Shown here: piece after piece, positions 22,918 to 47,446 of the stretch | Layout of the letters: each line of letters opens with the position of its first letter | How positions within the stretch are numbered: the first letter of the stretch is position 1 | Sequence record: PZ496581.1 | Length of the DNA: 64,000 nucleotides | Source of the DNA: a phage | Strand: one strand, 5' to 3' | Notes under the pieces: generated by a model | Database searches by the model: none | Seen by the model: the letters and a program-made list of their open reading frames with translations, nothing else | What the model was told of the DNA's origin: nothing | Position numbers and translations under genes: made by a program

Positions 22918-23343
22918 TTAACTTAAACGTCTTTCTAAATATTCAATGTATTCTGCGGCTGCTTGCATCAGGTTACCTTCATAGCCGTCGTTATTTTCTT
23001 GTCCGGCTAATTTAGCTAATGCATAAGAAATTCGTTCACCTTCGAATTCACCAAGTTTACTACCTAGCACATCCGCAATATCAGCCGAATCAATTTCTTC
23101 GAGTTCATCTATTGAATGTGATTCCCAGAAGCACCAAAGAGAAGTATCACGGTCATAGATGCAAAGTTTCTCACCTGTGTTCAACATCACTTCGATAATG
23201 CCATGGTCGCCATAACCATCTTCGGTCGTAGTACCAATTACCTTGATGATCGTATCTTTCTTTAATTCAGGAAACTTGACTTGTAGTTCTTCATCTTCTT
23301 TAACAATCTTGAACCACTTACCACGTGTGTCAGAAATATTCAT
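22918..23343 (-). CDS. hypothetical acidic protein, 141 aa
   Basis: ORF track. Confidence 0.5.
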   Translation of the reverse strand: MNISDTRGKWFKIVKEDEELQVKFPELKKDTIIKVIGTTTEDGYGDHGIIEVMLNTGEKLCIYDRDTSLWCFWESHSIDELEEIDSADIADVLGSKLGEFEGERISYALAKLAGQENNDGYEGNLMQAAAEYIEYLERRLS

Positions 23344-27985: not shown

Positions 27986-28011
27986 GTTTTACCTCCAGTA
28001 GTTGATAGGTC

Positions 28012-28040
28012 TATAATAACATAACCATAGACCTTGTAAA
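28012..28040 (-). promoter_or_regulatory. early-type promoter with inverted repeat flanking the -10
   Basis: Minus strand GTTTACaaggtctatggttaTGTTATTATagacct. Confidence 0.5.
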
Positions 28041-32812: not shown

Positions 32813-32947
32813 TTTACCATACTCGTTTCAATAAGATTCACTATGCCGTTTACCATGTTATAAGTAAACATCGGATAATTGTATTGTACTACAACATAAG
32901 CGATAAGCAAAAGTTTCATTTTGTTCTCCGTTTGTTTTGATAGGACT

Positions 32948-32977
32948 ACTATAACATAGTCCTACCAAGATGTAAAC
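32948..32977 (-). promoter_or_regulatory. early-type promoter with TAGGACTA/TAGTCCTA inverted repeat around the -10
   Basis: Minus strand GTTTACatcttggtaggactaTGTTATAGTagtccta. Confidence 0.5.
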
Positions 32978-33210: not shown

Positions 33211-33369
33211 ACATTTGCAATTCGGTGTGGGCTTCGGCCATCTTTTTCATAGCTCTGTTAATGTCGATGTCTCCATCTTCGCAACCATGAGCATTTTCCC
33301 AATCAGATACCGCATTAGCGTACTCTTCAATCAAAAACATTAACTTAGAAATTTTTTCTTTACGTGACA
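33191..33369 (-). CDS. hypothetical protein, about 59 aa
   Basis: Trimmed to ATG 33369 downstream of promoter. Confidence 0.4.
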
Positions 33370-33396
33370 TAACGTTCTCCTCTAGTAAGTAAGGAC

Positions 33397-33426
33397 TACT
33401 ATAACACAACCTGAGGAGAAGTAAAC
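33397..33426 (-). promoter_or_regulatory. early-type promoter; spacer TTCTCCTC complementary to downstream SD GAGGAGAA
   Basis: Minus strand GTTTACttctcctcaggttgTGTTATAGT. Confidence 0.5.
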
Positions 33427-33435
33427 TGATAGATG

Positions 33436-33464
33436 CCAAAAAGCCCCAACCTTTCGGAAGGGGC
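33436..33464 (-). terminator. rho-independent terminator (GCCCC...GGGGC plus U-tract)
   Basis: 29-nt sequence identical to 43941-43969. Confidence 0.65.
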
Positions 33465-33471
33465 TAGTAAA

Positions 33472-33774
33472 TTAGATAGATGTAGGCTCTAATTTTATTT
33501 TCATGAACTCGGCAAATTGTCTGGCAGTTTTTATGCCTTGTTCATGACATTCAAATGCATCATCACAGGGGCTATTTTTGTAATGCTTTGCCATATACTT
33601 ATAGAATTTTTCAGAATTCTCGACATTTTGAATTTCAAACAAAGTATATACGTTTTTAATCCCTGATTCCATAAAGTTACCAAAATATGGGTCGATATAT
33701 GCAGTACCAACGATAGGAGTTGTTGCTGCAAAAAACCCCAGCATCGCCATGACAGCTATCGCTCTTAAGGACAT
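33472..33774 (-). CDS. small exported protein, 100 aa
   Basis: Signal-peptide-like N-terminus [23 protein letters not shown]. Confidence 0.5.
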
Positions 33775-33998
33775 ATAGGCCTCCTGTTAATTTTGGCCAG
33801 TATTATTTTTCGCCTTTGGACGGCCTTAACATCTGCGAGGTATTTTTCCAGCTTGCGCTTGCGTGTATAATCAGCTTTAGAACCAGTTTGACGGATATCC
33901 TCGTTTAAATGAGAAATAGAATGTCCTAATTCTCTTCGGATTTCATCCAATTGGGTTACAGTAAGATTACGAAGTTGTCTTTCGTTTAATTGCTGCAT
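33765..33998 (-). CDS. hypothetical protein, 77 aa
   Basis: ORF track. Confidence 0.45.
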
Positions 33999-34025
33999 AT
34001 ATACCTCTTGGTTAGATATTAGTAT

Positions 34026-34607
34026 TTATAACAACCCTGTCAAATCGTTCCAATGCTTCCGGCATAATGACACATATCTATCGGTATCACCAATTTCAAT
34101 TTGACTGCCATCTGTAATTGGAAGTCCGTCTTCCGTGACTCTAGCTACCATTGTGGCCTTTTTACCACAATGACAGACACCTTTAAGTTCAACAAGCTTA
34201 TCGGCAATAGCCATTAATGCTTGAGAACCTTCAAATAGATTACCTTTAAAATCTGTTCGTAGTCCATATGCCATTACCGGCACATTGTATACGTCAACAA
34301 TACGACTAAGTTGATACACCTTTTCAGTAGTTAAGAACTGAGCTTCGTCAACAAATACACAGTGAATATCCTTTTGTGCTGCAGCCCATTTATAGAATTC
34401 AAAGATATCCATGTCTTTTGTAATTATATTGGCATCCTGACGAATACCAATACGAGAGACTATTTCACCTTTTGAATCGCGAGTATCAATAGCCGGTTTA
34501 AGAACTAATACACCCATGCCACGTTCTTTATAGTTATGTGCGGCAGTAAGTAATGAAGCAGACTTACCAGCGTTAATAGCGGCATAGGTAAAAATTAAAC
34601 TAGCCAT
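34026..34607 (-). CDS. tk: thymidine kinase, 193 aa
   Basis: P-loop AINAGKS, VDEAQF, C-terminal Zn motif CHCG...CRKH. Confidence 0.92.
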   Translation of the reverse strand: MASLIFTYAAINAGKSASLLTAAHNYKERGMGVLVLKPAIDTRDSKGEIVSRIGIRQDANIITKDMDIFEFYKWAAAQKDIHCVFVDEAQFLTTEKVYQLSRIVDVYNVPVMAYGLRTDFKGNLFEGSQALMAIADKLVELKGVCHCGKKATMVARVTEDGLPITDGSQIEIGDTDRYVSLCRKHWNDLTGLL

Positions 34608-34616
34608 AAGAGTCCC

Positions 34617-34799
34617 TTATAGTGAATTCACGTAGTCAATGAGTTCTTGTTCTTTCCTGTCAAATGATTCCAACAATGCTTGATATCCTTCGTCCGTCAA
34701 AGGAGCATATTCATCATACGCATTGGTGGCTGCTTGCTCATCCAATAGGTCATGGATAAGTTCGAACAGTTTAGTTTTCTCTTCTTTAGTCAATTTCAT
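34617..34799 (-). CDS. hypothetical protein, 60 aa
   Basis: ORF track. Confidence 0.4.
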   Translation of the reverse strand: MKLTKEEKTKLFELIHDLLDEQAATNAYDEYAPLTDEGYQALLESFDRKEQELIDYVNSL

Positions 34800-35023
34800 T
34801 TAGGTTCACCTTCTTTAACGAAATCTGGGTAAGGGTAAAATCCTGAGTAAAACCCTTCACCTTTATGATTGCTACAACCTTTGTTCGAACAGTAACACCA
34901 ATAATCAAAATCACAAGCCATTTCGTCATTGCATAAAGCAAAAACTACAGGCCATTCGCATTTTTCGCATTTAGCACCTGTAAGAATTTTTGTTTGACTC
35001 ATAGCCATGTCACCTTTAAGCAA
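34796..35023 (-). CDS. Cys-rich small protein, 75 aa
   Basis: ORF track. Confidence 0.45.
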   Translation of the reverse strand: MLKGDMAMSQTKILTGAKCEKCEWPVVFALCNDEMACDFDYWCYCSNKGCSNHKGEGFYSGFYPYPDFVKEGEPK

Positions 35024-35226
35024 TATTCTTCTACATGTTGTTTACGGCCTTTCTTATCAATAAAGGTATATTCAACGAATGTTCCGATGTAGTCTTTATC
35101 TACATCATGTGGACTATTAATTGGACATTTGGTACGACAAATGCGTTCCCATTGACGAATAATTACTGCCTTATTCTTTGGGTCATATGGATGTGGATAA
35201 TGTATATTCATAATAACGGTTCCCAA
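34999..35226 (-). CDS. hypothetical protein, 75 aa
   Basis: ORF track. Confidence 0.45.
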   Translation of the reverse strand: MGTVIMNIHYPHPYDPKNKAVIIRQWERICRTKCPINSPHDVDKDYIGTFVEYTFIDKKGRKQHVEEYCLKVTWL

Positions 35227-35705
35227 TCAACAATCACAATTTCTAGTTTAGTGGAATACGTATCTAAAATCTCTTCGATGACATCCCAGTTTCCACCACC
35301 AATACCTGCACCAATTCTTGGCATATAAATTACAGGCTTTGTTATCTTATTCTTTCCGAATTCATTTAATTCTATTATACAATTCATTAAAGCAGAGTAC
35401 TCAAAATTAGGTCCAGGCTCAAACTGTGTATAAAGATTAAAGCAATAAGCTTTATGGGTCTTAAAATATTTTTCATAAACCGAATAAGTCCCGAGTTTAG
35501 ACTCGTCTCCGAATTCTGTTTGAAGTTTATCGGCTTCCAGAATTTTTGGATAAGCCTTTGCTAATTGTCCTGCCACACCAGCGCCCATTGTATGAAAACA
35601 ATTACATCCATGAGCAATATTATTACCTTTAGAAAACAGGGCGACAATATCGCCCTTGATATAGTTTTTAATCACTTGCTGCAAGTCCTCTAGTATAAGA
35701 GTCAA
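35208..35705 (-). CDS. macro-domain protein (ADP-ribose binding/hydrolase candidate), 165 aa
   Basis: AHGCNCFHTMGAGVAGQ and PRIGAGIGGGNW resemble the two macro-domain glycine-rich loops. Confidence 0.6.
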   Translation of the reverse strand: MTLILEDLQQVIKNYIKGDIVALFSKGNNIAHGCNCFHTMGAGVAGQLAKAYPKILEADKLQTEFGDESKLGTYSVYEKYFKTHKAYCFNLYTQFEPGPNFEYSALMNCIIELNEFGKNKITKPVIYMPRIGAGIGGGNWDVIEEILDTYSTKLEIVIVDWEPLL

Positions 35706-36015
35706 CTAGACGGTCCACCATAGAATTGCATGCTGCCTTATCTTTAGGTTCCGCCACCGAGCATTCTAATATTTGCCATTTTTTATAGTATCTTTTAATT
35801 AAGGTAGACGCCTTGAACCTACTAGACGCCCCATCTTTTTCTCCGTCTTTATACGCATATAACAATTTTTGTGAAAAATCTACTTTACACTCTTGACTTT
35901 TACCACAGTAATCAGACGCCGTTCTGTTTGTATACTCCGTTACATCAGTATATGTAGTATTAGCAAGAGCGTTAAATGAAACCAAGCCAACTATTAAAGC
36001 CAACATTTTGGTCAT
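35668..36015 (-). CDS. exported Cys-containing protein, 115 aa
   Basis: Signal-peptide-like MTKMLALIVGLVSFNALA; 4 Cys in mature part. Confidence 0.5.
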   Translation of the reverse strand: MTKMLALIVGLVSFNALANTTYTDVTEYTNRTASDYCGKSQECKVDFSQKLLYAYKDGEKDGASSRFKASTLIKRYYKKWQILECSVAEPKDKAACNSMVDRLVDSYTRGLAASD

Positions 36016-36554
36016 TCTTTTATTTCCAGTAGTTTATTTGATTTAAGGTAATTAGCCTTTTCTAGGACTTCAGAAGCATATTTACTTCCAGCACTTGTCT
36101 TCCATCCCGCATTATATGAGGATATAGCTTTTCTTATATCCCCATTATGTATATTTAACCAATAAGAAAATTCGATATAAGCCCATCTGGCTGAATTAGA
36201 CCGCTTAGATAGCATTTTCTTAATTTGGGCATCAGTCATATTATAACCAAGCTGGTTAATTCTTGCCCTCATTGTTGGTAGATAGTTTTGGAACATTCCA
36301 TACGCATGGTGACCTTTCTTATCTTTAAGATTAATACCGGCAGATGATTCTTGCCATAGTATTGCGGCCATTATGTATCCAAGTCCTTTCTTATGCATAT
36401 TTTCATGCGTTTTAAATTTTCCGTCCTTAGAAAACTGTTCCCCAAACTGATAAGCATAATTCAAGTTATCGAGTTGGACATTACTAAAAGTATGCTCGGA
36501 GCTATGTGCTGATAATGAAAGAGCAAATAGACCAGCGAGTAGTGCTTTTCTCAT
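36012..36554 (-). CDS. periplasmic lytic-transglycosylase-like (SLT-domain) protein, 180 aa
   Basis: Signal peptide MRKALLAGLFALSLSAHS; WQESS and YGMFQ motifs. Confidence 0.55.
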   Translation of the reverse strand: MRKALLAGLFALSLSAHSSEHTFSNVQLDNLNYAYQFGEQFSKDGKFKTHENMHKKGLGYIMAAILWQESSAGINLKDKKGHHAYGMFQNYLPTMRARINQLGYNMTDAQIKKMLSKRSNSARWAYIEFSYWLNIHNGDIRKAISSYNAGWKTSAGSKYASEVLEKANYLKSNKLLEIKE

Positions 36555-36562
36555 GTTTACCT

Positions 36563-37021
36563 CTAGATTTTAATCACTGCTTTAGAAGCTTTTCCCGGTA
36601 GTCGTTTACTGTTAATAATAGCCATTCTACATTGAAGAGTCTTCATTTTGAATGCCGGATTTTCGCGACAAACTGTAAGTCCTAACCAAAGATTTCCATC
36701 AGTTATTTCTAAACGGCCTGGGCGATATTCGACACCTTCGACAAAATCTTCATCAACATCTGGACGTGCCGGCATTGATAAAAATTCTGCAACTTCTTTA
36801 ACATGATTTTTTACTTTACGAAATAATTCAAAAACGTAATTCTCATCTATTTCTCTCTGGATGGCACGATCTAAGAGATGTTGAGAATACTTGATATGAA
36901 AGCCTGGTAGTCCAAGAGACTTTGCAGCATCTTTTATACTGGCATTTATTTTGCGGAACTCCGTTTCAAAGATTCGACGGAGTTTATTACGGCGGATAAA
37001 AACGTCTGAATTGATAGTCAT
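36563..37021 (-). CDS. regB: endoribonuclease RegB
   Basis: MTINSDVFIRRNKLRR...YSQHLLDRAIQREIDE...GRLEITDGNLWLG matches T4 RegB as recalled. Confidence 0.9.
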   Translation of the reverse strand: MTINSDVFIRRNKLRRIFETEFRKINASIKDAAKSLGLPGFHIKYSQHLLDRAIQREIDENYVFELFRKVKNHVKEVAEFLSMPARPDVDEDFVEGVEYRPGRLEITDGNLWLGLTVCRENPAFKMKTLQCRMAIINSKRLPGKASKAVIKI

Positions 37022-37049
37022 TTTGATTTCTCCTCTAGTTGACAGATCT

Positions 37050-37078
37050 ATAGTAACACAACTAGAGGAGAAGTAAAC
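37050..37078 (-). promoter_or_regulatory. early-type promoter of regB; spacer is a 14-nt inverted repeat of the regB RBS region
   Basis: Minus strand GTTTACttctcctctagttgTGTTACTATagatctgtcaactagaggagaaatcaaaATG. Confidence 0.55.
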
Positions 37079-37297
37079 TACTTTATTGATAAAATGGAGT
37101 TAAAGCCCAAGATTCTTTAGATACCATATTGGCGAAATGCCTCATCTCTTCGATTTGGCGACGACGCTGGTCAGCATAGTCTTCTTCGCCTTCTTCCTTA
37201 CAATCTTAAAGGTCTTCTTCAAGATACTTTAAGTATTCACTACAAATTTTGTTGACCTTTTCTTGGAAGTCCAATAACCCAGTAATAGTAGAAGCCA

Positions 37298-37543
37298 TTA
37301 GTATTTTTCCTCAGGCTGAAATACTGCGCGGCAAGCCCACATACTAGCTTCCTTTAGACGCTCTTTAGCACAGTTAAGTTGGGACAAAGCCGTCAGAGCT
37401 TCAGGAGTATTTGCTGATAATGCTTCTTCTGCCAGGGCGTCCAGAATAAGTCCTAAACGAACTTCAGCATCTTTGATAGCATTCACTTTGCCGATTTTGT
37501 CATCGGTGTGTGGTTTGTAACCTTTAATATCTTCAATCGACAT
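37298..37543 (-). CDS. hypothetical protein, about 81 aa
   Basis: Trimmed to internal Met MSIEDIKG. Confidence 0.4.
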   Translation of the reverse strand: MSIEDIKGYKPHTDDKIGKVNAIKDAEVRLGLILDALAEEALSANTPEALTALSQLNCAKERLKEASMWACRAVFQPEEKY

Positions 37544-37757
37544 AAGGAATTTCCTCATCGGTGGCAAGGTCATATTCGACCAATTGGATAGGCTCATTAA
37601 TACCATATCCACGTACAGTGATATCAGTTGTCGGATAGTTTCCAGTAATATCACCCATTCTAAATGATTCAATGAATGATTGCTCGCCTGAGCAACTAAA
37701 CCAGGCGGCAAAACATTTTAAAACATCTTCAGACCCTTCTATAATCAATTTAGCCAT
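37533..37757 (-). CDS. hypothetical protein, 74 aa
   Basis: ATG at 37757. Confidence 0.45.
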   Translation of the reverse strand: MAKLIIEGSEDVLKCFAAWFSCSGEQSFIESFRMGDITGNYPTTDITVRGYGINEPIQLVEYDLATDEEIPYVD

Positions 37758-38120
37758 TATAGACTCTCAGTAAAGGTACGAGCGATAACGTCGCGCTGCT
37801 GTTCTGGAGTCAGAGAGTTAAAGCGAACTGCATAACCGGATACACGGATGGTCAGCTGCGGATATTTTTCCGGATGCTTAACTGCATCTTCCAGAGTTTC
37901 GCGACGCAGAACGTTAACGTTCAGGTGTTGACCACCTTCAATTTTAACTTTAGGTTGATGTTCAATTTCAATTTCACGGGCATGCAAACCGTAGAAAATT
38001 TCCGGGTCTACAATAGCGTCCTTCTTTAAAAGTCTTAGAGACAATAATCCGGGCTTGAGTACCGTCTTCAAAATAAATAGTGCCTTTATGTGCACCTTCA
38101 AGAATTTGATATGCTTTCAT
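37757..38120 (-). CDS. GrcA/YfiD-like autonomous glycyl-radical cofactor, interrupted by an apparent +1 frameshift near 38020
   Basis: ATG 38120 with GAGG SD opens a 42-codon frame; GrcA-like C-terminus ([14 protein letters not shown]...[12 protein letters not shown]) continues in the +1 frame. Confidence 0.55.
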
Positions 38121-38126
38121 ATAACC

Positions 38127-38408
38127 TCAATTAGAAAATAAATTTATCCAAGATTTTTCTTTAATCAAAAATGGGTCGGAATTAAACGCCATTAAACTTT
38201 GAGTGATTAATCCCTTAAATGGCCCATCAATAAATTCCATTTTGAAATGCGGAATACTAGTCATCAACCGTGCATTAGGAGCAGTACAAAGAACCTGCTG
38301 CCCTGCGAACGGGCCTTTAGTCAAACGGTATCGTTTAGGTTTAAAATGGTAAATCTCGTAATTTTCTACAAGGGCCCTTTTATTGCATACTGGGCTGTTA
38401 TAACACAA
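38127..38408 (-). CDS. hypothetical protein, 93 aa (TTG start in ORF track)
   Basis: ORF track. Confidence 0.4.
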   Translation of the reverse strand: MCYNSPVCNKRALVENYEIYHFKPKRYRLTKGPFAGQQVLCTAPNARLMTSIPHFKMEFIDGPFKGLITQSLMAFNSDPFLIKEKSWINLFSN

Positions 38409-38433
38409 TATTCAAAAACTTCAATAGTGGTCA

Positions 38434-38973
38434 TCATTGCATTCCAATCACAAAAAATTGAGGACGAGCATTACCACCGATGCAATATTTGCTTTTGCAG
38501 CAGTGCTGTAATGTTTTAATGTGGACATTGTAAATCTTATCCATATCAGGAGCTTTAATAGGCTCGTCAATTATATACAGAATACGAGAAAGCGTTAATC
38601 CACGGAATTTAGAACCTTCATTGCCAATAAAACTACGAACAGAATCAGTAAATAAACGGAATCGAATATCATCGCTAGAATAACGAGAAAATTCTTTTTC
38701 AATGTTGCCAGCAGAAATTTTAGCATAAGCTGAAGTATTAGAAAGAACAATAACTGTTCCGCCATCATACAGCCAATTAGCAGCAAAGTTAGTCACAGCA
38801 ATTGATTTACCTGATTGTCGGCCACCGTCTAAACGAAGTGTACAGTACTGCTTGAGTACGTCTTCAAATGGTGGGACATAACCGTTCTTACAAATTTCTT
38901 CTACTCTAGCATCAGAATGGTGTGTAAAAGCATTCATCAGGGATAGATAAGGACCAGTTAAAAATGTTCTCAT
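38434..38973 (-). CDS. P-loop-like protein, 179 aa
   Basis: GGRQSGKS Walker-A-like motif. Confidence 0.5.
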   Translation of the reverse strand: MRTFLTGPYLSLMNAFTHHSDARVEEICKNGYVPPFEDVLKQYCTLRLDGGRQSGKSIAVTNFAANWLYDGGTVIVLSNTSAYAKISAGNIEKEFSRYSSDDIRFRLFTDSVRSFIGNEGSKFRGLTLSRILYIIDEPIKAPDMDKIYNVHIKTLQHCCKSKYCIGGNARPQFFVIGMQ

Positions 38974-39145
38974 TTAGTTTCTCTTTTAGGTTGGGCCATT
39001 CCGTGGCACATGTTAGGTCCTTCGACTCGCTATGTAAACCCATTACCGCATTGCGCTCGACCTTATTACAGGTTGGAAAAGGTACATCACTCAGAGGACT
39101 CGACGTTCATAAGGAGAGGTTGCGTTTCCCTTTATTAGGCAAGAA

Positions 39146-39475
39146 TTATACTCTAGGCTTTTGAGCTTGTTTGGTATTGGATTCCCATGCGGCTTTGGTA
39201 ATTTTGTTAGCGGCATAACCAAAGGCATTAGATAGAACACCTTTAGAGTTGAATACATCCAATCCAATAAGTACACCGGCTGTGTTAAATTTAGGAGCAA
39301 AGTACGCATTAGTTTTAGAAAGAGCTTTTTTCAATTCAGGGTCTTGAACCAAGCCATCAAAAACGCCTTTACTATTTACTTTATATGTTACTTTGGGATT
39401 TTTACCTTCTTCGATAGCAGCTTTCTGTTCCGCAGATAATGTAACTTCAGTGATAAACTCCTGATATGTTTTCAA
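39146..39475 (-). CDS. internal-protein-like (capsid targeting sequence MKTYQEFITE), 109 aa
   Basis: N-terminal CTS-like decapeptide ending in Glu; apparent TTG start. Confidence 0.55.
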   Translation of the reverse strand: MKTYQEFITEVTLSAEQKAAIEEGKNPKVTYKVNSKGVFDGLVQDPELKKALSKTNAYFAPKFNTAGVLIGLDVFNSKGVLSNAFGYAANKITKAAWESNTKQAQKPRV

Positions 39476-39500
39476 TTTGTTCCTATTGTTTTAATTTATG

Positions 39501-39815
39501 TTATTCTTTAGGGAAGTTTTTAGAGTATGCATCATAAAGTTTATTACCAATACGACGGAAGACTTTAGCTGCAAAACGGTTTTCAGGGTTTTTAATCATG
39601 ATTTGCATCATGTAAGTTCCTGCATCCGAAAGAGCTTCTTCATAATACCCATTAATTTCTTTAAGAGTCCTACGTTTACCACCAGGACCATCAACAGTAA
39701 TTTTCCATTTACCTGTAGAAGTGCGGCTCGGTGGCTCAACTTGTTCAATCCAAATATAACCACCTTCAACGCGTTGGTTGGCGGATTCTGCAATAAATTC
39801 TTTATACGTTTTCAT
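39501..39815 (-). CDS. internal-protein-like (CTS MKTYKEFIAE), 104 aa
   Basis: ATG start; CTS-like N-terminus. Confidence 0.6.
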   Translation of the reverse strand: MKTYKEFIAESANQRVEGGYIWIEQVEPPSRTSTGKWKITVDGPGGKRRTLKEINGYYEEALSDAGTYMMQIMIKNPENRFAAKVFRRIGNKLYDAYSKNFPKE

Positions 39816-39878
39816 TTTTGTTTCCTTGTTTGTTTTGATAGAGTAATTATACCATATTAATACTTAAGCGTAAACCGT

Positions 39879-40139
39879 TTAAGCTTTACCGCCAGAAATA
39901 ATTCCGAAGTTGTTAAAATCATATCCAATATCGTCAACATCTACTTTAGGACTTGCTACAACATAAGCAATTTCACTACGTTTTGCATAGGTGTTGATTT
40001 CTTTACCATTGCCACCTAAGAAAGAATACCCATTACGTTTTAATGAGCCAAAGTCTTCCGCATCACCAATGAAAGCTTTAACTTTAAATTTAGGGTCTTT
40101 GGTATCTGCTTCAACGATAAATTCTTGATACATTTTCAT
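39879..40139 (-). CDS. internal-protein-like (CTS MKMYQEFIVE), 86 aa
   Basis: ATG start; CTS-like N-terminus. Confidence 0.6.
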   Translation of the reverse strand: MKMYQEFIVEADTKDPKFKVKAFIGDAEDFGSLKRNGYSFLGGNGKEINTYAKRSEIAYVVASPKVDVDDIGYDFNNFGIISGGKA

Positions 40140-40145
40140 TTTTCC

Positions 40146-40559
40146 TTAGTAAATTGATTTACCATAGTATTTGTACCAAGTCGGACGTTGAGCAATTTTT
40201 TCATCTAAGCGTGCTTGACTTATCGCAATGGACGCTTCGGGCGGGACATAATTATTACGAAATTCGGCAGGGATGTCGGAAATATCCTGGACTGTCGTGT
40301 CCTTGATTTTGAAACCACGTTTCAAACATTCAGCGATTAGCTCGATTTGACGTAAACGTAAAAATTCGAGTTTGTCGTAAAAGAATGTTACGTGACCTGT
40401 GCCTAAGATAAATGTTGGAGAGATTTTAAAATCCTTTACACGTTTACCGTTTTGAACATGTTTACGGACTGCACCAAATACGCGTGGTAATTCACGATAC
40501 TCAGCCATAAGATGTTGGTCGGTCAGTTCAGAAACAAGTGTTAAATTGATACGGGTCAT
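40146..40559 (-). CDS. denV: endonuclease V (pyrimidine-dimer DNA glycosylase) DenV
   Basis: [12 protein letters not shown]...[16 protein letters not shown] matches T4 DenV as recalled; start trimmed to MTRINL. Confidence 0.9.
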
Positions 40560-40582
40560 AATTTCCTCCAAGTAGTTGATGA

Positions 40583-40616
40583 ATGTATAGTATCAAAGTC
40601 CTTGGAGGAAGTAAAC
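40583..40616 (-). promoter_or_regulatory. early-type promoter of denV; spacer TTCCTCCAAG is the inverse complement of the RBS region CTTGGAGGAA
   Basis: Minus strand GTTTACttcctccaaggactttgatacTATACATtcatcaactacttggaggaaattATG. Confidence 0.55.
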
Positions 40617-40617
40617 A

Positions 40618-40899
40618 CTATTTTTCTGAAGCGCCTGAAATATATTTTTCAAGACGTTGTTTCATCAGCGAGCCGTTCTTAGCGATTTCTTCCGGTTTAT
40701 CGCACATACGTAACAAGGCTTCAAGCTTAGCGATATCGCTGGTACGTTCAAATTTGCGAGTATCTATCTTACTAGCAAGTTCAGAAATACGTGCTAGTAG
40801 ACTTTCGGCTTCAACCAAAGCTGCACCTAGCTTAGTTGCAAATGTGTCAGTAGCTTCGTTAAGAATAGATTCTGATAAAAATTCACTATATGTTTTCAT
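40618..40899 (-). CDS. internal-protein-like ([13 protein letters not shown]), about 94 aa
   Basis: Start trimmed to MKTYSEF. Confidence 0.55.
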
Positions 40900-41384
40900 A
40901 TATACGCTTTCCAAGTTCCTGTTTTAAATGTTGAGATTACGCGTTTCGCGCGATTAGGTGTCTGACGATACCATTTAGATTGGGCTAGATTTACTGCCGC
41001 TTCATCCCAACGTTTCTGTTGAAGCATACGAAGAGAATTAGTAAAACCAGCGACGCCTGCTACACCCATTTGGAAGACCATATTGACCAATGCACATCGA
41101 CGAACCGCATCTAAAGAATCATATACCGGTTTAAGTTTAGCATTACCCAAGATTCCGCGAACGGCTTTATCGACGTCTTCATTAAATAGCTTTTCAGCCT
41201 CATCAAGGGTAATTGTACCGTTGCATTTACGTCCGATCATTCTGTCAAGTTCAGCTTTAGCTACGGCTAAAGACGGGTTCTTTGTTACTAAATGGCCTAT
41301 GCCAATCGTCCAAAAGCCTTCAGTGTCTTTGTATAAAGTCAGTCTAAGACCTTCGTCATTACGAAGCATTTCAAATATATTCAT
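40896..41384 (-). CDS. e: lysozyme e (endolysin), 162 aa
   Basis: [15 protein letters not shown]...TIGIGHL matches T4 lysozyme as recalled; start trimmed to MNIFEML. Confidence 0.93.
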
Positions 41385-41412
41385 AATACCTCCCACGTTT
41401 ATAGGAGGTATT
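41385..41412 (-). promoter_or_regulatory. RBS-sequestering inverted repeat upstream of lysozyme e (AUACCUCC...GGAGGUAU)
   Basis: 8-bp inverted repeat with the SD in the 3' arm, directly 5' of the ATG. Confidence 0.5.
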
Positions 41413-41418
41413 TATTAC

Positions 41419-41877
41419 TTATAGGAGGGTAGTGAGCACCTTATATAATGATTTGCCCATTACATATTCCCATTGAGAAGGTTTAATTAAAGCGAATGCA
41501 TCAAATTCAGGAATCTGTCGTCCGTCTGGGAATGTATGATAGGAATTACAAACACTGTTTCTGAATTGCTCGTGCTCTACAGGGATGGTATATAGGAACA
41601 GATGAATATTCTTATTGTCTGAGTAATGATGTTCACCTAGGTCTTTCAGGAAGGCAGGGTCATATTGTGTAAACCCAGTTTCTTCTTCGCATTCACGAAT
41701 AGCGGCTTCAATAGGAGATTCACCCGGCTCGACACGTCCTTTAGGAATATCCCACCGATGAGCTAAAGAACCTTTAGGACGAGAACCAGTTACACGCCCC
41801 ATGAATAATTCTTTATCTTCGGTAAGGAAAATAATACCGGCTGATAGTTCTTTCACTTTATTTTTCTTACTCATCAT
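41419..41877 (-). CDS. nudE: Nudix hydrolase NudE
   Basis: Nudix box GRVEPGESPIEAAIRECEEETG. Confidence 0.85.
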   Translation of the reverse strand: MMSKKNKVKELSAGIIFLTEDKELFMGRVTGSRPKGSLAHRWDIPKGRVEPGESPIEAAIRECEEETGFTQYDPAFLKDLGEHHYSDNKNIHLFLYTIPVEHEQFRNSVCNSYHTFPDGRQIPEFDAFALIKPSQWEYVMGKSLYKVLTTLL

Positions 41878-42118
41878 CTCGGTCCCATGATTTGGCCATT
41901 AATTCGGACATAAATTCTTCAATGCGCGTTTCTTTAGATGGACTTTCACTATTAGAGACCGCAAGTTTGTAATCTGCAATAGGACAGAACATATCAAGGT
42001 CCATATTAAGGTCGTCTTTGATTTTTTCTTCTGACACATCTTTATCGTATGTGTACAGATAACTATCACATGATTCTGATTTAATGTAAATTGCTATACT
42101 CATCTCAAATTCCTGCAT
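41867..42118 (-). CDS. hypothetical protein, 83 aa
   Basis: ORF track. Confidence 0.45.
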   Translation of the reverse strand: MQEFEMSIAIYIKSESCDSYLYTYDKDVSEEKIKDDLNMDLDMFCPIADYKLAVSNSESPSKETRIEEFMSELMAKSWDRDDE

Positions 42119-42591
42119 TCGGTAATAAAACGTTCAACTTCATTATTCTTGGCTTTTATCTTGTCTTTATGTTCTTGTAAACTACTTTTAATAAGATTAA
42201 TAATGATGGCGACAGTGCCGCCGCCAATGATGCCACCAATAATACTTACGATAGTAGATGCTAATAAGATAGCAATAATATCAACAAAACCGAAAGAACT
42301 CACCTTAGTACTAAAAAACCATACCGATGGTACAAATATAATCCATCCTGCTATCCATTGGCACTTATTGAAAAACTTTTCAAGATCAGCTTGAGTTGTT
42401 CGTATTACTTCATCGATAGGTTGATAACCGTTAATGTATCTGTTCACGATAATACCTGCTGGCTGGTCGATTTTAAATTCTTGGCAAATACGTTTAACTA
42501 AGTAGGATGGACATCCTGTCCAATCTACTGAATAGTATGAAATACCTTTATTGCCGTCGTCTATATTAGACCAATATGTTTTGTTAATCAT
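42100..42591 (-). CDS. membrane protein, 163 aa
   Basis: Hydrophobic segments, Gly-rich helix IIGGIIGGG. Confidence 0.5.
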   Translation of the reverse strand: MINKTYWSNIDDGNKGISYYSVDWTGCPSYLVKRICQEFKIDQPAGIIVNRYINGYQPIDEVIRTTQADLEKFFNKCQWIAGWIIFVPSVWFFSTKVSSFGFVDIIAILLASTIVSIIGGIIGGGTVAIIINLIKSSLQEHKDKIKAKNNEVERFITECRNLR

Positions 42592-43160
42592 TACCAGCCT
42601 TCCATAGGGAATTCCAGATAAACTTGAGCGTTGACACGAATTTCATTGGTAATCTTTTTAACTCGGTCTGTATTACGAGATACACGTCCGAACCAACGCC
42701 ATCCATTACTAATTGCACGAGAACCAGTGTGCCATGTTTGCCAATCAAACTGAAGAAGAGTACGGTCCGGAGCTTCCCATTTCTCTAGTTCACCTTTTTC
42801 AATTTTTTCGAGGACTTCTTTGTGCCACTGACGATAGATAAGTTCGCCATCAGAAGTTTTAACATCTACAACCCAATCGCCATCTTTCTCTTCAACCTGT
42901 GGTTTATCCCAAGAAATACTAATATATGATTCACTGTCAATAGAAGTCGCCGGGTTTTTCTTTACTGTAAGACCTTCACTTTCCAGCCATTCAATAGTAT
43001 TTGCGCATAACTCAGAAGAACACCTCATCGGAAACCGGCAAGATTTTTCACCTTTAGCTGCGGTGTTATACATCTTTTCTAAAATACGCTTTTGCACGTT
43101 TTTAAAAATAGTTTCAGCCGATTCTTCAGATTTTTTATTCAGTTCAGTATAAAGACTCAT
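42591..43160 (-). CDS. hypothetical protein, 189 aa
   Basis: ATG with AGAGGAAAA SD; early promoter at about 43185-43217 upstream. Confidence 0.55.
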   Translation of the reverse strand: MSLYTELNKKSEESAETIFKNVQKRILEKMYNTAAKGEKSCRFPMRCSSELCANTIEWLESEGLTVKKNPATSIDSESYISISWDKPQVEEKDGDWVVDVKTSDGELIYRQWHKEVLEKIEKGELEKWEAPDRTLLQFDWQTWHTGSRAISNGWRWFGRVSRNTDRVKKITNEIRVNAQVYLEFPMEGW

Positions 43161-43184
43161 AACATTTTCCTCTGTAGTTGATAA

Positions 43185-43217
43185 GTCTATAGTATCACAT
43201 CTAGGGAAGAAGTAAAC
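43185..43217 (-). promoter_or_regulatory. early-type promoter
   Basis: Minus strand GTTTACttcttccctagatgtgatacTATAGAC. Confidence 0.5.
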
Positions 43218-43269
43218 AACTTTTTTAGTAAGTTATAGACCCCCTAATGGGGACCGAAGTCCCCATTCT

Positions 43270-43896
43270 TTACTTACGAGTTTTTGCATACTGAGCAGCG
43301 TCAGCAGCCAAACGACCTGCTTGTCGAAGTTTTTCTTTAATCTCATCATGAAGTGGTTGAGTATACTTCAAACCTTCGATAGTCAAATAAAGACGATAAA
43401 GGTCTGGGGTATCAAGGTTGTTGATATGTTGGCCATTACGAAGAATATTGAATTCACGAACGAGTGAAGATGTATCAGATTCAATATCACGAACAAGCGA
43501 AGATAGTTGTTTATATTTTTTTTCCAGGCTAGAAGTATCAAACTTAAGAGCAGGAGCTTTAGGAGTTGCTTTTACTTCCGGCTTAGGCTCAGGTTTTGCT
43601 ATTGCTTTAGGGGACGCAGGTTTAGGAATGGTAGGAGCAGGTTTTACTTTAGGCGAACCCGATTTAGCAGAAACACCACCACTAACAATATCTTTGAATG
43701 CTTTAGAAGCTCTGTAATATTCTTTTTGGCTGGAAGTGTCGATACCGTACATGGCTTGAACGTTTTTGAAAAACTCTGTACTAGTTTTTGTACCAGAAAT
43801 AGCATCGTAAGCAGCTTGCCATTTCTCTTTTGTCATACGTACACCGGCTTCGGTGATTACTTCCGTTTCGGCTAAAAATTCATTAAAAGTATACAT
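43270..43896 (-). CDS. internal-protein-like (CTS-like MYTFNEFLAE), 208 aa, Pro/Lys/Ala-rich middle
   Basis: ATG start; CTS-like N-terminus; late promoter TATAAATA upstream. Confidence 0.55.
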   Translation of the reverse strand: MYTFNEFLAETEVITEAGVRMTKEKWQAAYDAISGTKTSTEFFKNVQAMYGIDTSSQKEYYRASKAFKDIVSGGVSAKSGSPKVKPAPTIPKPASPKAIAKPEPKPEVKATPKAPALKFDTSSLEKKYKQLSSLVRDIESDTSSLVREFNILRNGQHINNLDTPDLYRLYLTIEGLKYTQPLHDEIKEKLRQAGRLAADAAQYAKTRK

Positions 43897-43931
43897 TGAT
43901 GGTCCTTAGAAAGTAGGTTTATTGTTTACTA

Positions 43932-43939
43932 TATTTATA
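43932..43939 (-). promoter_or_regulatory. late promoter TATAAATA
   Basis: Minus-strand TATAAATA about 35 nt upstream of the 43896 ATG. Confidence 0.55.
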
Positions 43940-43940
43940 C

Positions 43941-43969
43941 AAAAAAGCCCCAACCTTTCGGAAGGGGCT
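43941..43969 (-). terminator. rho-independent terminator, second copy of the 33436-33464 element
   Basis: GCCCC...GGGGC hairpin plus U-tract; ends the tRNA/small-RNA transcript. Confidence 0.65.
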
Positions 43970-44011
43970 ATATACCTTGTCGGGTTCCCACCTGCTAAGG
44001 CAAGTGTTTGT

Positions 44012-44103
44012 ACGAAACGCCGGGATTCGAACCCGGTTATTAAGCAGTTGACGCTACTCAATATTTTTAAAAGGCCATATCTCGACCATATCCGAACGTT
44101 CCG
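44012..44103 (-). ncRNA. tRNA-like small RNA (canonical T-arm, paired acceptor ends; no clean cloverleaf)
   Basis: Minus strand has CCGGG-TTCGAAT-CCCGG and complementary 7-nt ends CGGAACG/CGTTTCG; about 92 nt. Confidence 0.3.
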
Positions 44104-44635
44104 TCAAAAACGCTACTCGGCTTACGGCAAAGATATTTCCTCGAATCGATAATTCTGTGCGCCGTTTCTGCTGTGATGTAAGGGGATATTAACGAATCAT
44201 AAAGATTTATTAAGACCAGTCCTTACTCAGGGAACATCAGTCCGACGACTTGCCGGTAGCGACCCGGCTTCTTATTTTGGCATATCATCAATTTGCTCTC
44301 GACGCCGACGCCATAGATTAATCGCTTCATAAACACATTCAGCATTTGGTATATGACGACAATAGTATAGTGATTCGCGTTTCTGGAACCGATGTTGTAA
44401 TGGAATTTCGTTTAAAAGGTCTTTACGGTCAAAGTATTCAAAACTAGTTAACCCTGAACGGTTTTTAAGAAACTTCCAATGTCCGAATTCATTTTGAAAA
44501 TAGACATAATCAGCATGCTGATACAGCGAATTAATTAACCTATCGGAAATAACTGTTTCACGTTCGTTAAAATAAAACGTTAAGTCATGAACTACCAGAT
44601 AAATATTGCCCTTTCATATTTTCCTCACTTGAAGT

Positions 44636-44711
44636 TGGTGCCTCTAGAAAGATTTGAACTCTCACCATTAACCTTAGAATGATTATATGCTATCCATTAC
44701 ACTATAGAGGC
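44636..44711 (-). tRNA. tRNA-Arg (anticodon TCT)
   Basis: Hand-folded cloverleaf: acceptor GCCTCTA/TAGAGGC, anticodon loop ATTCTAA, T-loop TTCAAAT, encoded CCA; 76 nt. Confidence 0.8.
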
Positions 44712-45362
44712 AATTAAATTATTTACAATATCTTCTTTATAAACTTCAGCATAATGAAGTTCATATATTTCCCATCCTAATGATTTTATAATATCATGGC
44801 GTTCTTTATAATAAGGGGCCAAAATCTTTTTCTTAGGATTGGAGTAATGTTGATTTCCATTAACTTCAATAATAATCTTTTTATCTATTAAAGCGATATC
44901 CGTGCAATACGCTCGGTTTTTAACCGGTTGGTATTCTTCAATAAATGAAATTCCGTTTTCTATTAATTTAGATTTCAAAAATTCACAAGGCACAGATTTA
45001 AATTTTGTATTTTTCTTCCAAGGATGTTTATCGGGGTTTTCATTCAACCATTTTTTCCGAGCATTAGATATTTTTATTCTAGATTCCTCAGAGTGTTCTC
45101 TACCTAATGAAGCGGCTGACAATTTTTGTCTAGTCTCTTCCGAAATTACTACAGGAACACCAGTCTTTTTAGATACAACATACTGGTTTAAATTACCTGA
45201 AGCTATACGTGCTTTATTCATTGCTGCAATGGCTGATTTAGAACTTTCTTTATACAATTCCAATTTAGGGTTGGATTTACACCATCTAGTGTGGTTAGCC
45301 ATCCATCCTTTAGGTTTATTAGAAATATCAAATTCCATATTACAATGTTTACAAATGCTCAT
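44697..45362 (-). CDS. freestanding endonuclease-like protein (N-terminal Zn finger, NUMOD-like repeats, C-terminal DUF559/Vsr-like nuclease motif), about 221 aa
   Basis: CKHC...HTRWC; IALIDKKIIIEVNGNQHY motif; lies inside the tRNA cluster; stop overlaps tRNA-Arg 3' end. Confidence 0.55.
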   Translation of the reverse strand: MSICKHCNMEFDISNKPKGWMANHTRWCKSNPKLELYKESSKSAIAAMNKARIASGNLNQYVVSKKTGVPVVISEETRQKLSAASLGREHSEESRIKISNARKKWLNENPDKHPWKKNTKFKSVPCEFLKSKLIENGISFIEEYQPVKNRAYCTDIALIDKKIIIEVNGNQHYSNPKKKILAPYYKERHDIIKSLGWEIYELHYAEVYKEDIVNNLIASIV

Positions 45363-45372
45363 TACCAATTAT

Positions 45373-45390
45373 CTCCTATAAATATAGGAG
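45373..45390 (-). promoter_or_regulatory. perfect 8-bp palindrome CTCCTATA-aa-TATAGGAG over the endonuclease RBS
   Basis: Hairpin would sequester the AGGAG SD of the 45362 ATG. Confidence 0.45.
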
Positions 45391-45435
45391 TATTTATTAT
45401 TTGGATAGAGCACTTAATTTACTTCGTTTAAATTA

Positions 45436-45507
45436 CTGGCGCACTTGGACTCGAACCAAGATAAAGGAGTTAACAGCTCCCCGTAATAACCTTTATACGA
45501 TGCACCA
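45436..45507 (-). tRNA. tRNA-Asn (anticodon GTT), no encoded CCA
   Basis: Hand-folded: acceptor TGGTGCA/TGCGCCA, anticodon loop CTGTTAA, T-arm CTTGG-TTCGAGT-CCAAG; 72 nt. Confidence 0.6.
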
Positions 45508-45513
45508 TTTGTT

Positions 45514-45588
45514 TGGTGACCCTGGCTGGTTTCGATCCAGCTACCTATCAGTTATGAGCTGACAGCTCTCCCATTGAGCTACAGGGCC
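45514..45588 (-). tRNA. tRNA with CAT anticodon (elongator Met or Ile2), encoded CCA
   Basis: Hand-folded: acceptor GGCCCTG/CAGGGTC, D-arm GCTC-AATGGGA-GAGC, anticodon loop CTCATAA; 75 nt. Confidence 0.8.
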
Positions 45589-45667
45589 TAAATAACTTTC
45601 TATTATGAAAGGCACTTTAGAGCACCTTTGGTAATAGAGGGTACGAATTAATAATAACACATAATTC

Positions 45668-46183
45668 TTAAAGCAAATCAATCATTTTAACAGTTGGCAA
45701 AACGATTTCTTCTTCAATATAAGCAAATTCAACACATTCAACTACACGCAAGAAATCATAATCATAATATTCAGAAGCATGGCCAAGAATATCAATGAGA
45801 CCTTCTGATACCAAATATCCATTCTCACGGAACAGGTCGAATACACGCGATTCGTCTTCTTCAGATTTATTACCAAGGTCGACTTCAATATCAAAGACCT
45901 TTTTAATGAATTCTGGATAAAGCTGGTCTGAGAACAGTCCTTCAACCAAGTATTCATAGATTAAAAGCGAGCAATCACTGAATGGTGTATTACCACAGTA
46001 ACGTTCAGCTTTAGTGCTAGAATGACGACTCTTAAATTTCTTCAAGAGATATTTAAACTGTTGGAGCTCATGCTCTTCCACACCAAATAATGTTTTGGTT
46101 TTATAGTTGTCGCCGTCATTTTCCGAAGTAGTGACATCAATTACGTAACCCTTAGGAATTGTACTGCCTAAACAAATATTCAT
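45668..46183 (-). CDS. hypothetical protein, 171 aa
   Basis: ORF track. Confidence 0.55.
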   Translation of the reverse strand: MNICLGSTIPKGYVIDVTTSENDGDNYKTKTLFGVEEHELQQFKYLLKKFKSRHSSTKAERYCGNTPFSDCSLLIYEYLVEGLFSDQLYPEFIKKVFDIEVDLGNKSEEDESRVFDLFRENGYLVSEGLIDILGHASEYYDYDFLRVVECVEFAYIEEEIVLPTVKMIDLL

Positions 46184-46187
46184 TTAC

Positions 46188-46478
46188 TCACCGTACCATA
46201 TTAATGTAATTATATTCAATGCAACGTAATTTCAAAGGATTCTTGAAAATATCATATTCAAGAGGGCCTTTTTCTGTTTCAATAAAGAAATCAAAGTTAA
46301 CTGTGTTAAATTTATCATCTTCACAGAGTAATTTAACCTGTGAAGATGAACGGTCGATATAAACCTTTTCAACCTCAAAGTTAGTCAGAATACCGTAGTC
46401 ATCGACTAGTGCTTTAGCTGCACGTTGATCGCTTTCATATCCATTCTCAATGGACGATACTTTAGCATAAAGAATCAT
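46188..46478 (-). CDS. hypothetical protein, 96 aa
   Basis: ORF track. Confidence 0.5.
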   Translation of the reverse strand: MILYAKVSSIENGYESDQRAAKALVDDYGILTNFEVEKVYIDRSSSQVKLLCEDDKFNTVNFDFFIETEKGPLEYDIFKNPLKLRCIEYNYINMVR

Positions 46479-46855
46479 GAATGTTCCACCATTTCAAAGG
46501 TATGAGCATCAACAATATGATACCAGTCAAAATTTTCTTCTGCGTTTTTATAAATTTCGCGAAGAGCCTCAACAGTTTTTCCTGTAGCAACAAGGTCGTC
46601 AATACCACCAAGAGGATAACAGTCATAACCAGCAAACAGAAGGAAATTAATAGTTTCTGTAGGTTCTGGATGCAGAACACCGTTATCGTCTACCACTTCA
46701 AAGAAAGTGTAAGAAGGAGTACAAGTTTTAATCCAAGCCCATGCTTGAGCTGCTGAATCAAATGGTCTGCGTATCAAACGACAATCAGGGTCTTTAGAAG
46801 GATTTGCTTCAAAATCCGCATATACGTGATATTTCATTTTACTCACCTTTTGCAA
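46475..46855 (-). CDS. hypothetical protein, 126 aa
   Basis: ORF track. Confidence 0.5.
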   Translation of the reverse strand: MQKVSKMKYHVYADFEANPSKDPDCRLIRRPFDSAAQAWAWIKTCTPSYTFFEVVDDNGVLHPEPTETINFLLFAGYDCYPLGGIDDLVATGKTVEALREIYKNAEENFDWYHIVDAHTFEMVEHS

Positions 46856-47045
46856 TTTTATCCATAACGATAGCGATTAAGCCGATTAGAAATGCTACTA
46901 CCAATGAGATAGAGTTTTCAGTTGTTGTCAGTAGTCCACAAATGAATCCTACAAACATCGAAAAACTAAAAGCCATTGAAGCAATTACTACAGCAACATT
47001 ACGAATCAGTTCAGCGCGTTTCATTTTATTTCTCCATTTACTCAT
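46839..47045 (-). CDS. small membrane protein
   Basis: Hydrophobic core; true start may be ATG 47024. Confidence 0.45.
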   Translation of the reverse strand: MSKWRNKMKRAELIRNVAVVIASMAFSFSMFVGFICGLLTTTENSISLVVAFLIGLIAIVMDKIAKGE

Positions 47046-47059
47046 TTGTTTTGATAGGA

Positions 47060-47091
47060 CTACTATAACATAGTCCTATCAGCATGTAAAC
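47060..47091 (-). promoter_or_regulatory. early-type promoter with GATAGGACTA/TAGTCCTATC inverted repeat around the -10
   Basis: Minus strand GTTTACatgctgataggactaTGTTATAGTagtcctatc. Confidence 0.5.
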
Positions 47092-47094
47092 TAC

Positions 47095-47382
47095 TTACAG
47101 AAGAGTTTTTGCAATAATTTTAAGCTGAGCTACAGAAATATGCTTAGCTTTAAACAGTGCAGTCTCTTCAGCCGGAGAGATAACAATAGTAGCGCCATCT
47201 TTCTTGGCAGACCATCCATCCCCTAAGTAAACAGTACCTTTTACTTCTTCGCCGTCAACCAGACTAATCATTGGTTTACCCTCACGTCCTTTATTTGCTT
47301 TAATAACTTCGGAAGTAAGGGTTGCTTCGGTCAGAGTAGAAACGTTAGCAACAGGTGATATAAATTCTTGATAGGTTTTCAT
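47095..47382 (-). CDS. internal protein I-like (CTS MKTYQEFISP), 95 aa
   Basis: ATG start; CTS-like N-terminus; T4 ipI position next to 57B. Confidence 0.6.
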   Translation of the reverse strand: MKTYQEFISPVANVSTLTEATLTSEVIKANKGREGKPMISLVDGEEVKGTVYLGDGWSAKKDGATIVISPAEETALFKAKHISVAQLKIIAKTLL

Positions 47383-47416
47383 TTTATTTCCTTGAGGTTG
47401 TTTATTTGATAGGATG

Positions 47417-47446
47417 ATAGTAACACACCATCATCCTTATGTAAAC
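47417..47446 (-). promoter_or_regulatory. early-type promoter with AGGATGAT/ATCATCCT inverted repeat
   Basis: Minus strand GTTTACataaggatgatggtgTGTTACTATcatcct. Confidence 0.5.

Follow-up and report, generated by a model that had tools for sequence, protein, structure and literature searches.

Early promoters set inside ribosome-site hairpins upstream of regB and denV in a Tequatrovirus, a candidate gate on the translation of read-through RNA

Background

In a stretch of phage DNA of 64,000 nucleotides (nt) (sequence record PZ496581.1, referred to as the window), the genes regB and denV are each preceded by an early promoter that is enclosed in an inverted repeat, the 3' arm of which contains the gene's own Shine-Dalgarno (SD) sequence. 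We consider it reasonably probable that at these two genes, and more weakly at an open reading frame (ORF) starting at 33370, the early promoter sits inside a hairpin that masks the ribosome-binding site (RBS), with translation possible only from RNA that was started locally.

The window belongs to a Tequatrovirus with about 98% identity to phage ST2, and its genes lie on the minus strand. In a megablast search with positions 33000-41000, T4-like phages matched the whole query at 97-98% identity, with thymidine kinase, rI, vs, regB and denV among the annotated genes of the matching segment, and in the T4 annotation the homologous region (56-74 kb) has the identical gene order with all genes on the minus strand. 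Given this match and the shared gene order, the finding concerns early promoters of a Tequatrovirus, and all promoter and hairpin sites were read on the minus strand.

Several T4 genes are known in which the ribosome site is closed by RNA structure. On long transcripts of genes e, soc, 49 and I-TevI, the SD and/or the AUG lies in an inhibitory helix (Uzan & Miller 2010, PMC3014915), and for gene e, lysozyme synthesis is 100-fold lower than from transcripts without the structure (PMC3014915). The same source also lists the homing endonuclease genes I-TevII, I-TevIII, mobE and segB as cases of inhibitory ribosome-site structures.

Results

Strict early promoters were defined as GTTTAC-N16-18-TAnnnT, of which the window holds 15, each with an ORF next to it. 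The predicted transcription start (+1) was taken as the 7th nt after the -10, with the consensus distance assumed. Hairpin significance was judged by folding the RNA from the -35 to the ATG against 200 dinucleotide shuffles, and access to the ribosome site was expressed as an opening energy, i.e., the free energy in kcal/mol required to unpair positions -15 to +3, with read-through RNA modelled as positions -100 to +40 and the RNA of the promoter itself as the predicted +1 to +40. As background, 61 other mapped genes in the read-through context have a mean opening energy of 5.8 kcal/mol (standard deviation 3.2, 95th percentile 10 kcal/mol).

The regB cassette (37019..37078, minus strand) opens with the -35 GTTTAC (37078-37073), followed by the 5' arm TTCTCCTCTAGTTG (37072-37059) and tgt, the -10 TACTAT (37055-37050), agatctgt, the 3' arm CAACTAGAGGAGAA with the SD (37041-37028), and atcaaa before the ATG (37021); the predicted +1 falls at 37043. 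Its inverted repeat is perfect over 14 base pairs (bp) and folds at -21.3 kcal/mol (z -4.8, with 0/200 shuffles folding as well), and the opening energy is 18.8 kcal/mol in read-through RNA vs 4.6 kcal/mol in the promoter-proximal RNA. The denV cassette (40557..40616, minus strand) consists of GTTTAC (40616-40611), the 5' arm TTCCTCCAAG (40610-40601) and gactttga, TACTAT (40592-40587), acattcatcaacta, the 3' arm CTTGGAGGAA with the SD (40572-40563), and att before the ATG (40559), with the predicted +1 at 40580. Here, a perfect repeat of 10 bp folds at -17.8 kcal/mol (z -5.2, again 0/200 shuffles), and 12.0 kcal/mol is needed to open the site in read-through RNA vs 2.3 kcal/mol in proximal RNA. 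Both promoters are of the early sigma-70 type (GTTTAC, 17-18 nt, TACTAT or TATAGT), and in both the predicted +1 falls between the 5' arm and the 3' arm. The spacer/SD inverted repeats that the initial annotation had reported for regB, denV and the ORF at 33370 are thus confirmed, strongly for the first two and weakly for the third, which has 8 bp (22/200 shuffles).

It had also been proposed that read-through transcripts fold the RBS and that local transcripts leave it open. Folding of the two kinds of RNA predicts this for the subset with spacer-SD pairing, in which the opening energy falls from 12-19 to 2-6 kcal/mol, and does not predict it for four further hairpins that bracket the -10. 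The drop at regB and denV matches that at two known ribosome-site hairpins of the same window, which served as positive controls (PMC3014915): the leader of gene e (lysozyme, with late promoters; 41382..41430, minus strand) requires 17.4 kcal/mol on long RNA vs 5.2 kcal/mol on proximal or truncated RNA, and that of gene 49 (22880..22925, minus strand) requires 14.0 vs 2.8 kcal/mol. The likeness to the T4 switch that combines a late promoter with an RBS hairpin, drawn already in the initial annotation, is apt. In a scan of T4 itself (56-74 kb), the top opening energies were those of regB (18.5), segB (17.2), e (15.6), denV (12.3) and e.8 (11.7 kcal/mol); since the scan recovers e, which is proven, and segB, which is implicated in the literature, it places regB and denV among the known cases. 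In the T4 read-through context, e.8, which has an early promoter (11.7 vs 2.6 kcal/mol), rI (10.9 kcal/mol) and segB are thus high as well, and of these three only segB is mentioned in PMC3014915.

Across the 15 strict promoters, a spacer's pairing with its own leader is better than its pairing with leaders from elsewhere in the set (permutation p about 3e-4). That the stems at regB and denV might be intrinsic terminators was considered and rejected: their loops are 17-28 nt long, the stem is followed by AAUCAAAAUG at regB and by AUUAUG at denV without a U-tract, and the terminator scan called neither. A search of 27000-49500 with the Rfam covariance models (E<=1) gave no hits besides three tRNAs and one sub-threshold match that overlaps a tRNA. 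GAGGAGAAGTAAAC might also be read as an SD on the plus strand; this was discarded, as no suitably spaced plus-strand ORF is present. The upstream genes' stop codons lie 1-4 nt before the -35 and hence 7-10 nt before the 5' arm, so that elongating ribosomes halt short of the stem.

To follow the arrangement in relatives, RegB and DenV homologue loci were drawn from viral and metagenome collections and their upstream regions were read. The regB arms differ between relatives and nevertheless stay complementary: next to the TTCTCCTCTAGTTG/CAACTAGAGGAGAA pair of the window there is a T4 type, TTTTCCTCTTGACTG/CAGTTAAGAGGAGAA, with two G-U pairs, as well as TTTCTCCTCTTTATG/CATAAAGAGGAGAAA, TCTCCTGTAAG/CTTACAGGAGA, ATCCTCTCTG/CAGAGAGGAT, and a composite form, TTTCCTT..GGGCCAT / ATGGCCC..AAGGAGA. 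At denV, two architectures occur. The first has its 5' arm after the -35 (TTCCTCCAAG; TCTCCTGTAG; CTCCGTTTG/CAAACGGAG; TCTCCTGTG/CACAGGAGA), and in the second it is made up of the 3' half of the -10 together with the discriminator (TAGTGTTCTC/GAGAACACTA; GATGTCTTCC/GGAGGACATC; TAGTAGCCT/AGGCTACTA; ATTGTCCT/AGGACAAT). In both, the 5' arm extends no further than the predicted +1, and the SD is covered by the 3' arm. Counted from the start site, the centre of symmetry shifts from about -7 to about +5 between the architectures, and the SD remains in the 3' arm. That the SD pairing is fixed while arm sequence and repeat centre move points to selection on SD masking rather than on a palindrome as such.

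The masking is also conserved in its predicted energetics. In all 20 of the 20 denV promoter classes, the read-through opening energy (8.9-24, median 13.6 kcal/mol) stands against 1.7-7.9 kcal/mol in proximal RNA, and among the regB classes, most of which are masked, the median in read-through is 14.0 kcal/mol. When the regB leaders were aligned (MAFFT with RNAalifold), nothing beyond a 6-bp CUCC/GGAG core was recovered, as the arms are displaced by indels. An alignment-free test was used instead, in which the 40 nt upstream of -21 were paired with the last 24 nt, cognate vs permuted. Cognate pairing exceeded non-cognate pairing both for denV (p 4e-5, 15 classes) and for regB (exact p 4e-4, 7 classes), where each cognate pair ranked first.

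Some relatives carry the cassettes in other combinations. In the metagenome locus L181 (229-297), regB stands behind a T4 denV cassette (TCTCCTGTAG/CTACAGGAGA), and in L036 (about 500-600), denV stands behind an ipIII-type cassette (GAATTGTGA/TCACAATT) with outer CTCC/GGAG pairing. Judging from these sequences, promoter and SD modules move between genes, and the cassettes behave as shuffled modules of the early-promoter stem-loop (PeSL) type discussed below. A different arrangement was seen in four phage contigs of 345-380 kb (L041, L042, L046 and L047), in which a -35 TTGAC lies within a GC-rich terminator hairpin with a T-run (GGGTTGACTTCGGTCAGCCCTTTTT) about 60 nt upstream of denV. No SD mask was seen upstream of denV in these four contigs; a -35 embedded in a terminator would be another way to insulate denV from upstream transcription.

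The third site in the window precedes an ORF of 59 amino acids (33368..33426, minus strand). It reads GTTTAC (33426-33421), the 5' arm TTCTCCTC (33420-33413) with aggttgtgt, TATAGT (33403-33398), agtccttacttacta, the 3' arm GAGGAGAA (33382-33375), and cgtt before the ATG (33370), and its opening energy is 12.2 kcal/mol in read-through vs 5.9 kcal/mol in proximal RNA. It matches the regB cassette over its first 14 nt and again at GTTGTGTTA and CTAGAGGAGAA, and by its sequence it looks chimeric, its 5' half being of the regB type and its -10 region resembling that of the promoters 47091 and 32977. Directly upstream of this promoter, a terminator-like hairpin with a T-run (AGCCCC...GGGGCTTTTT; 33437..33465, minus strand) can be read from the sequence, which the simple terminator scan did not call; terminator-like hairpin, promoter and SD mask are thus combined at a single site (33368-33465, minus strand).

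Four other early promoters carry inverted repeats around the -10, as the initial annotation had noted, and these are real stems of 11-13 bp (z -1.9 to -4.6). They lie at 47411..47437 (promoter 47446, -10 ending at 47417, z -3.9), 47052..47081 (promoter 47091, -10 ending at 47062, z -4.25), 32937..32968 (promoter 32977, -10 ending at 32948, z -4.6) and 28007..28034 (promoter 28041, -10 ending at 28013, z -1.9), all on the minus strand. Promoter 47446 precedes an ipI-like gene (ATG 47382), the SD of which lies outside the hairpin (opening energy 2.9 vs 3.4 kcal/mol). With 1.4-5.1 kcal/mol in read-through vs 2.3-4.2 kcal/mol in proximal RNA over the four promoters, the ribosome site is modelled as equally open in both transcript types, i.e., these hairpins are not predicted to mask it. 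The cassettes 47091 and 32977, 14 kb apart, share an identical 34-nt core, TAGGACTATGTTATAGTAGTCCTATCAAAACAAA (47052-47085 and 32938-32971, minus strand), a direct repeat of sufficient length for recombination through cassettes as it has been proposed for PeSLs.

Two neighbouring loci vary as well. In the 189-residue ORF at 42591-43160 (minus strand), residues 1-105 and 101-189 match two separate loci in relatives, which suggests a fusion or recombination junction within the ORF. Between gene e and denV (40618-41384, minus strand), one small ORF takes the place of ipIII and ipII in T4, a variation of the internal-protein locus.

Discussion

The analysis establishes the repeats, their statistical excess, their predicted energetics and their conservation through changes of sequence and architecture; the start sites, the formation of the hairpins in vivo and the consequences for translation and for cleavage by RegB are inferred. 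The 5' strand of the hairpin, which lies in the promoter spacer or, in some relatives, in the 3' half of the -10 and the discriminator, would act as an anti-SD, and the 3' strand would be the gene's own SD region. A polymerase starting at the local promoter would begin downstream of the 5' strand and produce an unstructured, readily translated leader, whereas RNA entering from upstream (extended early, MotA-dependent middle or late) would hold both strands and fold, burying the ribosome site. Translation would be licensed only for RNA from the local early promoter, and RegB and DenV would be made in the few minutes during which early promoters fire. As a secondary prediction, the GGAG that is masked in read-through RNA would also be shielded from RegB, because RegB requires a single-stranded site.

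In T4, MotA-dependent middle promoters lie upstream of regB (Pvs.7, start 64382) and of denV (PipIII, start 66724), and in the window gene e with its late promoters is located two genes upstream of denV. Between these sources of read-through and regB or denV, a simple scan of the window called no terminator-like site on the minus strand. The proposed gating would fit the statement that RegB production must be tightly regulated (PMC3014915) and proteomic data in which RegB appears in the early phase (PMC9697503).

Several observations weigh against this interpretation. SD masking is not enriched as a class in the promoter-proximal genes of the window (Mann-Whitney tests: duplex energy, p 0.36; SD pairing, p 0.64), where overall local folding alone is stronger near early promoters (p 8e-4); masking is gene-specific and confined to few genes, with regB, denV and 33370 standing out. 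At 33370 itself, the stem of 8 perfect bp with a bulged extension is not significant alone (z -1.2, 22/200 shuffles as good), and the weak spacer-SD pairings at the early promoters 43158..43217 (z -0.3, opening energy 6.1 vs 4.3 kcal/mol) and 19327..19386 (z -1.3, 6.2 vs 4.0 kcal/mol), both on the minus strand, are not significant either. Searches for homologues of the genes starting at 33370, 19329 and 43160 yielded almost no diverged cassettes. The +1 positions are predicted from the consensus distance only. The predicted leaders of the masked genes are short, about 20-24 nt, with 21-22 nt in the window, so that whatever pairs with the SD can only be located upstream of +1 and the position of the 5' arm is not independent evidence. 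The loops are long (17-28 nt), which in vivo could slow the folding or let ribosomes or protein S1 win the competition. Among the regB relatives, L013, L015, L018 and L187 show little or no masking. A comparison of G-U pairs with A-C mismatches, intended to tell selection on the sense RNA apart from selection on a DNA palindrome, gave 10 vs 11 overall and too few cases under a strict rule. Finally, part of the apparent covariation consists of swaps of whole cassettes rather than of stepwise compensatory mutation; each cassette family is internally complementary with different arms, so that compensatory change must have occurred at some point, in fewer events than there are sequences.

Of the other explanations, the one closest to the literature is that the stem-loops are selected as terminators or attenuators of incoming transcription and as recombination sites, the overlap with the SD being incidental, as in the published account of PeSL cassettes (Arbiol 2010, PMC2839356; Comeau 2014, PMC4122927). 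The elements do fit that description, which comprises an early promoter behind an AT-rich region, together with a stem-loop and an SD with start codon, cassettes are common to unrelated genes (regB in L181, denV in L036, and the 34 identical nt of 47091 and 32977), and one RB49 stem-loop lowered the expression of downstream lacZ (PMC2839356). The regB and denV stems, with their long loops and lacking a U-tract, are not terminator-like in the scan, and a role in termination or recombination leaves unexplained why, with two architectures and over 15 different arm sequences, the 3' arm has kept to the SD. We regard this account as unlikely for these genes. It is compatible with the proposed gating and probably describes the hairpins that bracket the -10. 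Less likely still is that the main function would be to shield long transcripts from cleavage by RegB with protein S1 at the GGAG of the SD, the block of translation being secondary. The RegB target is an 11-nt single-stranded RNA starting with GGA, GGAG sites within structure were found to be resistant (PMC1702504), and the regB SD is a known efficient RegB site (PMC3014915), all of which speak for such a role. The denV SD contexts, however, fit the A-rich consensus poorly (T4 has GGAGAACACUA, with C where the consensus excludes C), masking is retained in all denV classes including those with the SDs ACGGAG and GGAGGAC, and the design is shared by gene e and gene 49, both with a proven role in translation.

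Two further explanations seem to us very improbable. The repeats might act at the level of DNA: recombination or replication might target them as a cruciform or hairpin, or a dimeric protein that shuts off early promoters might bind them as a palindromic operator. The shut-off of early promoters is unexplained, palindromes centred on a promoter are typical of operators, and the counts of G-U pairs and A-C mismatches do not favour RNA. A common operator was nevertheless rejected, given the more than 15 arm variants that differ between cassettes; the SD remains part of the 3' arm even though the symmetry centre shifts, and the long spacers between the arms disfavour cruciform extrusion. Alternatively, translation might be coupled, with a ribosome that ends at the upstream stop codon melting the 5' arm and thereby allowing translation of read-through RNA, as the short distance from the upstream stop codons to the -35 and the 5' arm would suggest. 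With a stop codon in the A site, the helicase of the ribosome extends no more than about 5-7 nt beyond it, which would open at most 0-2 of the 10-14 bp, and in the second denV architecture about 25-30 nt separate the stop codon from the 5' arm downstream of it.

The closest known system to the proposed gating at regB and denV is the T4 switch of e, soc, 49 and I-TevI (PMC3014915). In both, the SD or AUG is enclosed in a helix on RNA started upstream, here by prediction, and the promoter lies inside the hairpin so that its own RNA lacks the 5' strand, here with predicted starts; within the window, the predicted energetics are of equal size. The T4 switch has a late gp55-dependent promoter (TATAAATA), whereas the promoters described here are of the early type GTTTAC-N17-TAnnnT, so that the cassettes would work like this switch without being the same member of it. 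The temporal logic would be inverted: the late switch delays translation until late in infection, and an early version would confine it to the first minutes. The late switches were proven experimentally, whereas the gate at regB and denV is predicted from the sequence. In the homing endonuclease genes Aeh1 mobE and T4 segB (17.2 kcal/mol), a helix over the ribosome site likewise lowers translation, and there no internal early promoter relieves the block (as summarised in PMC3014915).

For regB itself, regulation has been accounted for by the early promoter and by self-cleavage only (PMC3014915). RegB cleaves its own SD (PMC3014915; PMC1702504), and this mechanism and the hairpin would share the gene and the GGAG and would both limit RegB synthesis after transcription; they differ in that self-cleavage acts in trans on a single-stranded GGAG, whereas the hairpin is a structure in cis that would confer resistance to RegB. 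PeSL cassettes have been described for RB49/phi1, T4/PST and KVP40/nt-1 as intergenic AT-rich regions with an early promoter, a stem-loop placed variably with respect to the -35 and -10, and an SD with start codon, which lie in variable regions and recur at several loci and before different genes. All of this is found here as well (47091 and 32977, L181, L036). In the published work, the stem-loop is taken to terminate or attenuate transcription and to serve as a site of recombination; translation plays no part in that account, and the word "translation" is absent from the main text of PMC2839356; the difference here is a subset of stems that pair with the SD and lack terminator features. The structures themselves are not new, having already been published as PeSL cassettes. 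Their reading as an early-promoter gate and the comparative support for it appear to be new, though older primary papers may already mention SD masking at regB or denV. Potential stem-loops before ipIII, ipII, denV and orf61.9, which is regB, were reportedly described by Valerie et al. in 1986 (Nucleic Acids Res 14:8637).

There is, in our view, a slightly less than even chance that T4-like phages use an RBS-masking hairpin with an internal promoter for every promoter class, and that translation depends on the promoter from which an RNA originates. At gene 1 (dNMP kinase homologue; 48876-48935, minus strand, ATG 48884), TAGCTCCGTATG just upstream of TATAAT pairs with CTATGGAGCTA, which comprises the start codon and codons 2-3, and opening the site in read-through RNA takes 16.5 kcal/mol. 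In T4, gene 1 is served by P1 (start 75393), a middle promoter that depends on MotA, so that gene 1 may be a middle-promoter version of the gate. At the gene 55 homologue (about 17174-17245, minus strand, ATG 17174), a hairpin ATAGGTCT...TATAATAGACCTAT surrounds a -10-like element, with an outer pairing that reaches the SD (16.1 kcal/mol in read-through).

Conclusions

If the proposed gating of regB and denV holds, the time window in which certain early proteins are made, and their amount, would be set by the structure of the promoter cassette, also for a nuclease that destroys early mRNA, through a gate that is independent of protein factors and that travels with shuffled cassettes. RNA-seq coverage of regB and denV after about 3 minutes would not need to mean protein synthesis, a prediction that bears on the decoupling of transcriptome and proteome reported for T4 (PMC9697503). 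A textbook mechanism of late genes would be extended to early and possibly middle genes, some PeSL stem-loops would acquire a translational role, and a layer encoded in cis would be added to the rapid, incompletely understood fall in early expression and protein synthesis.

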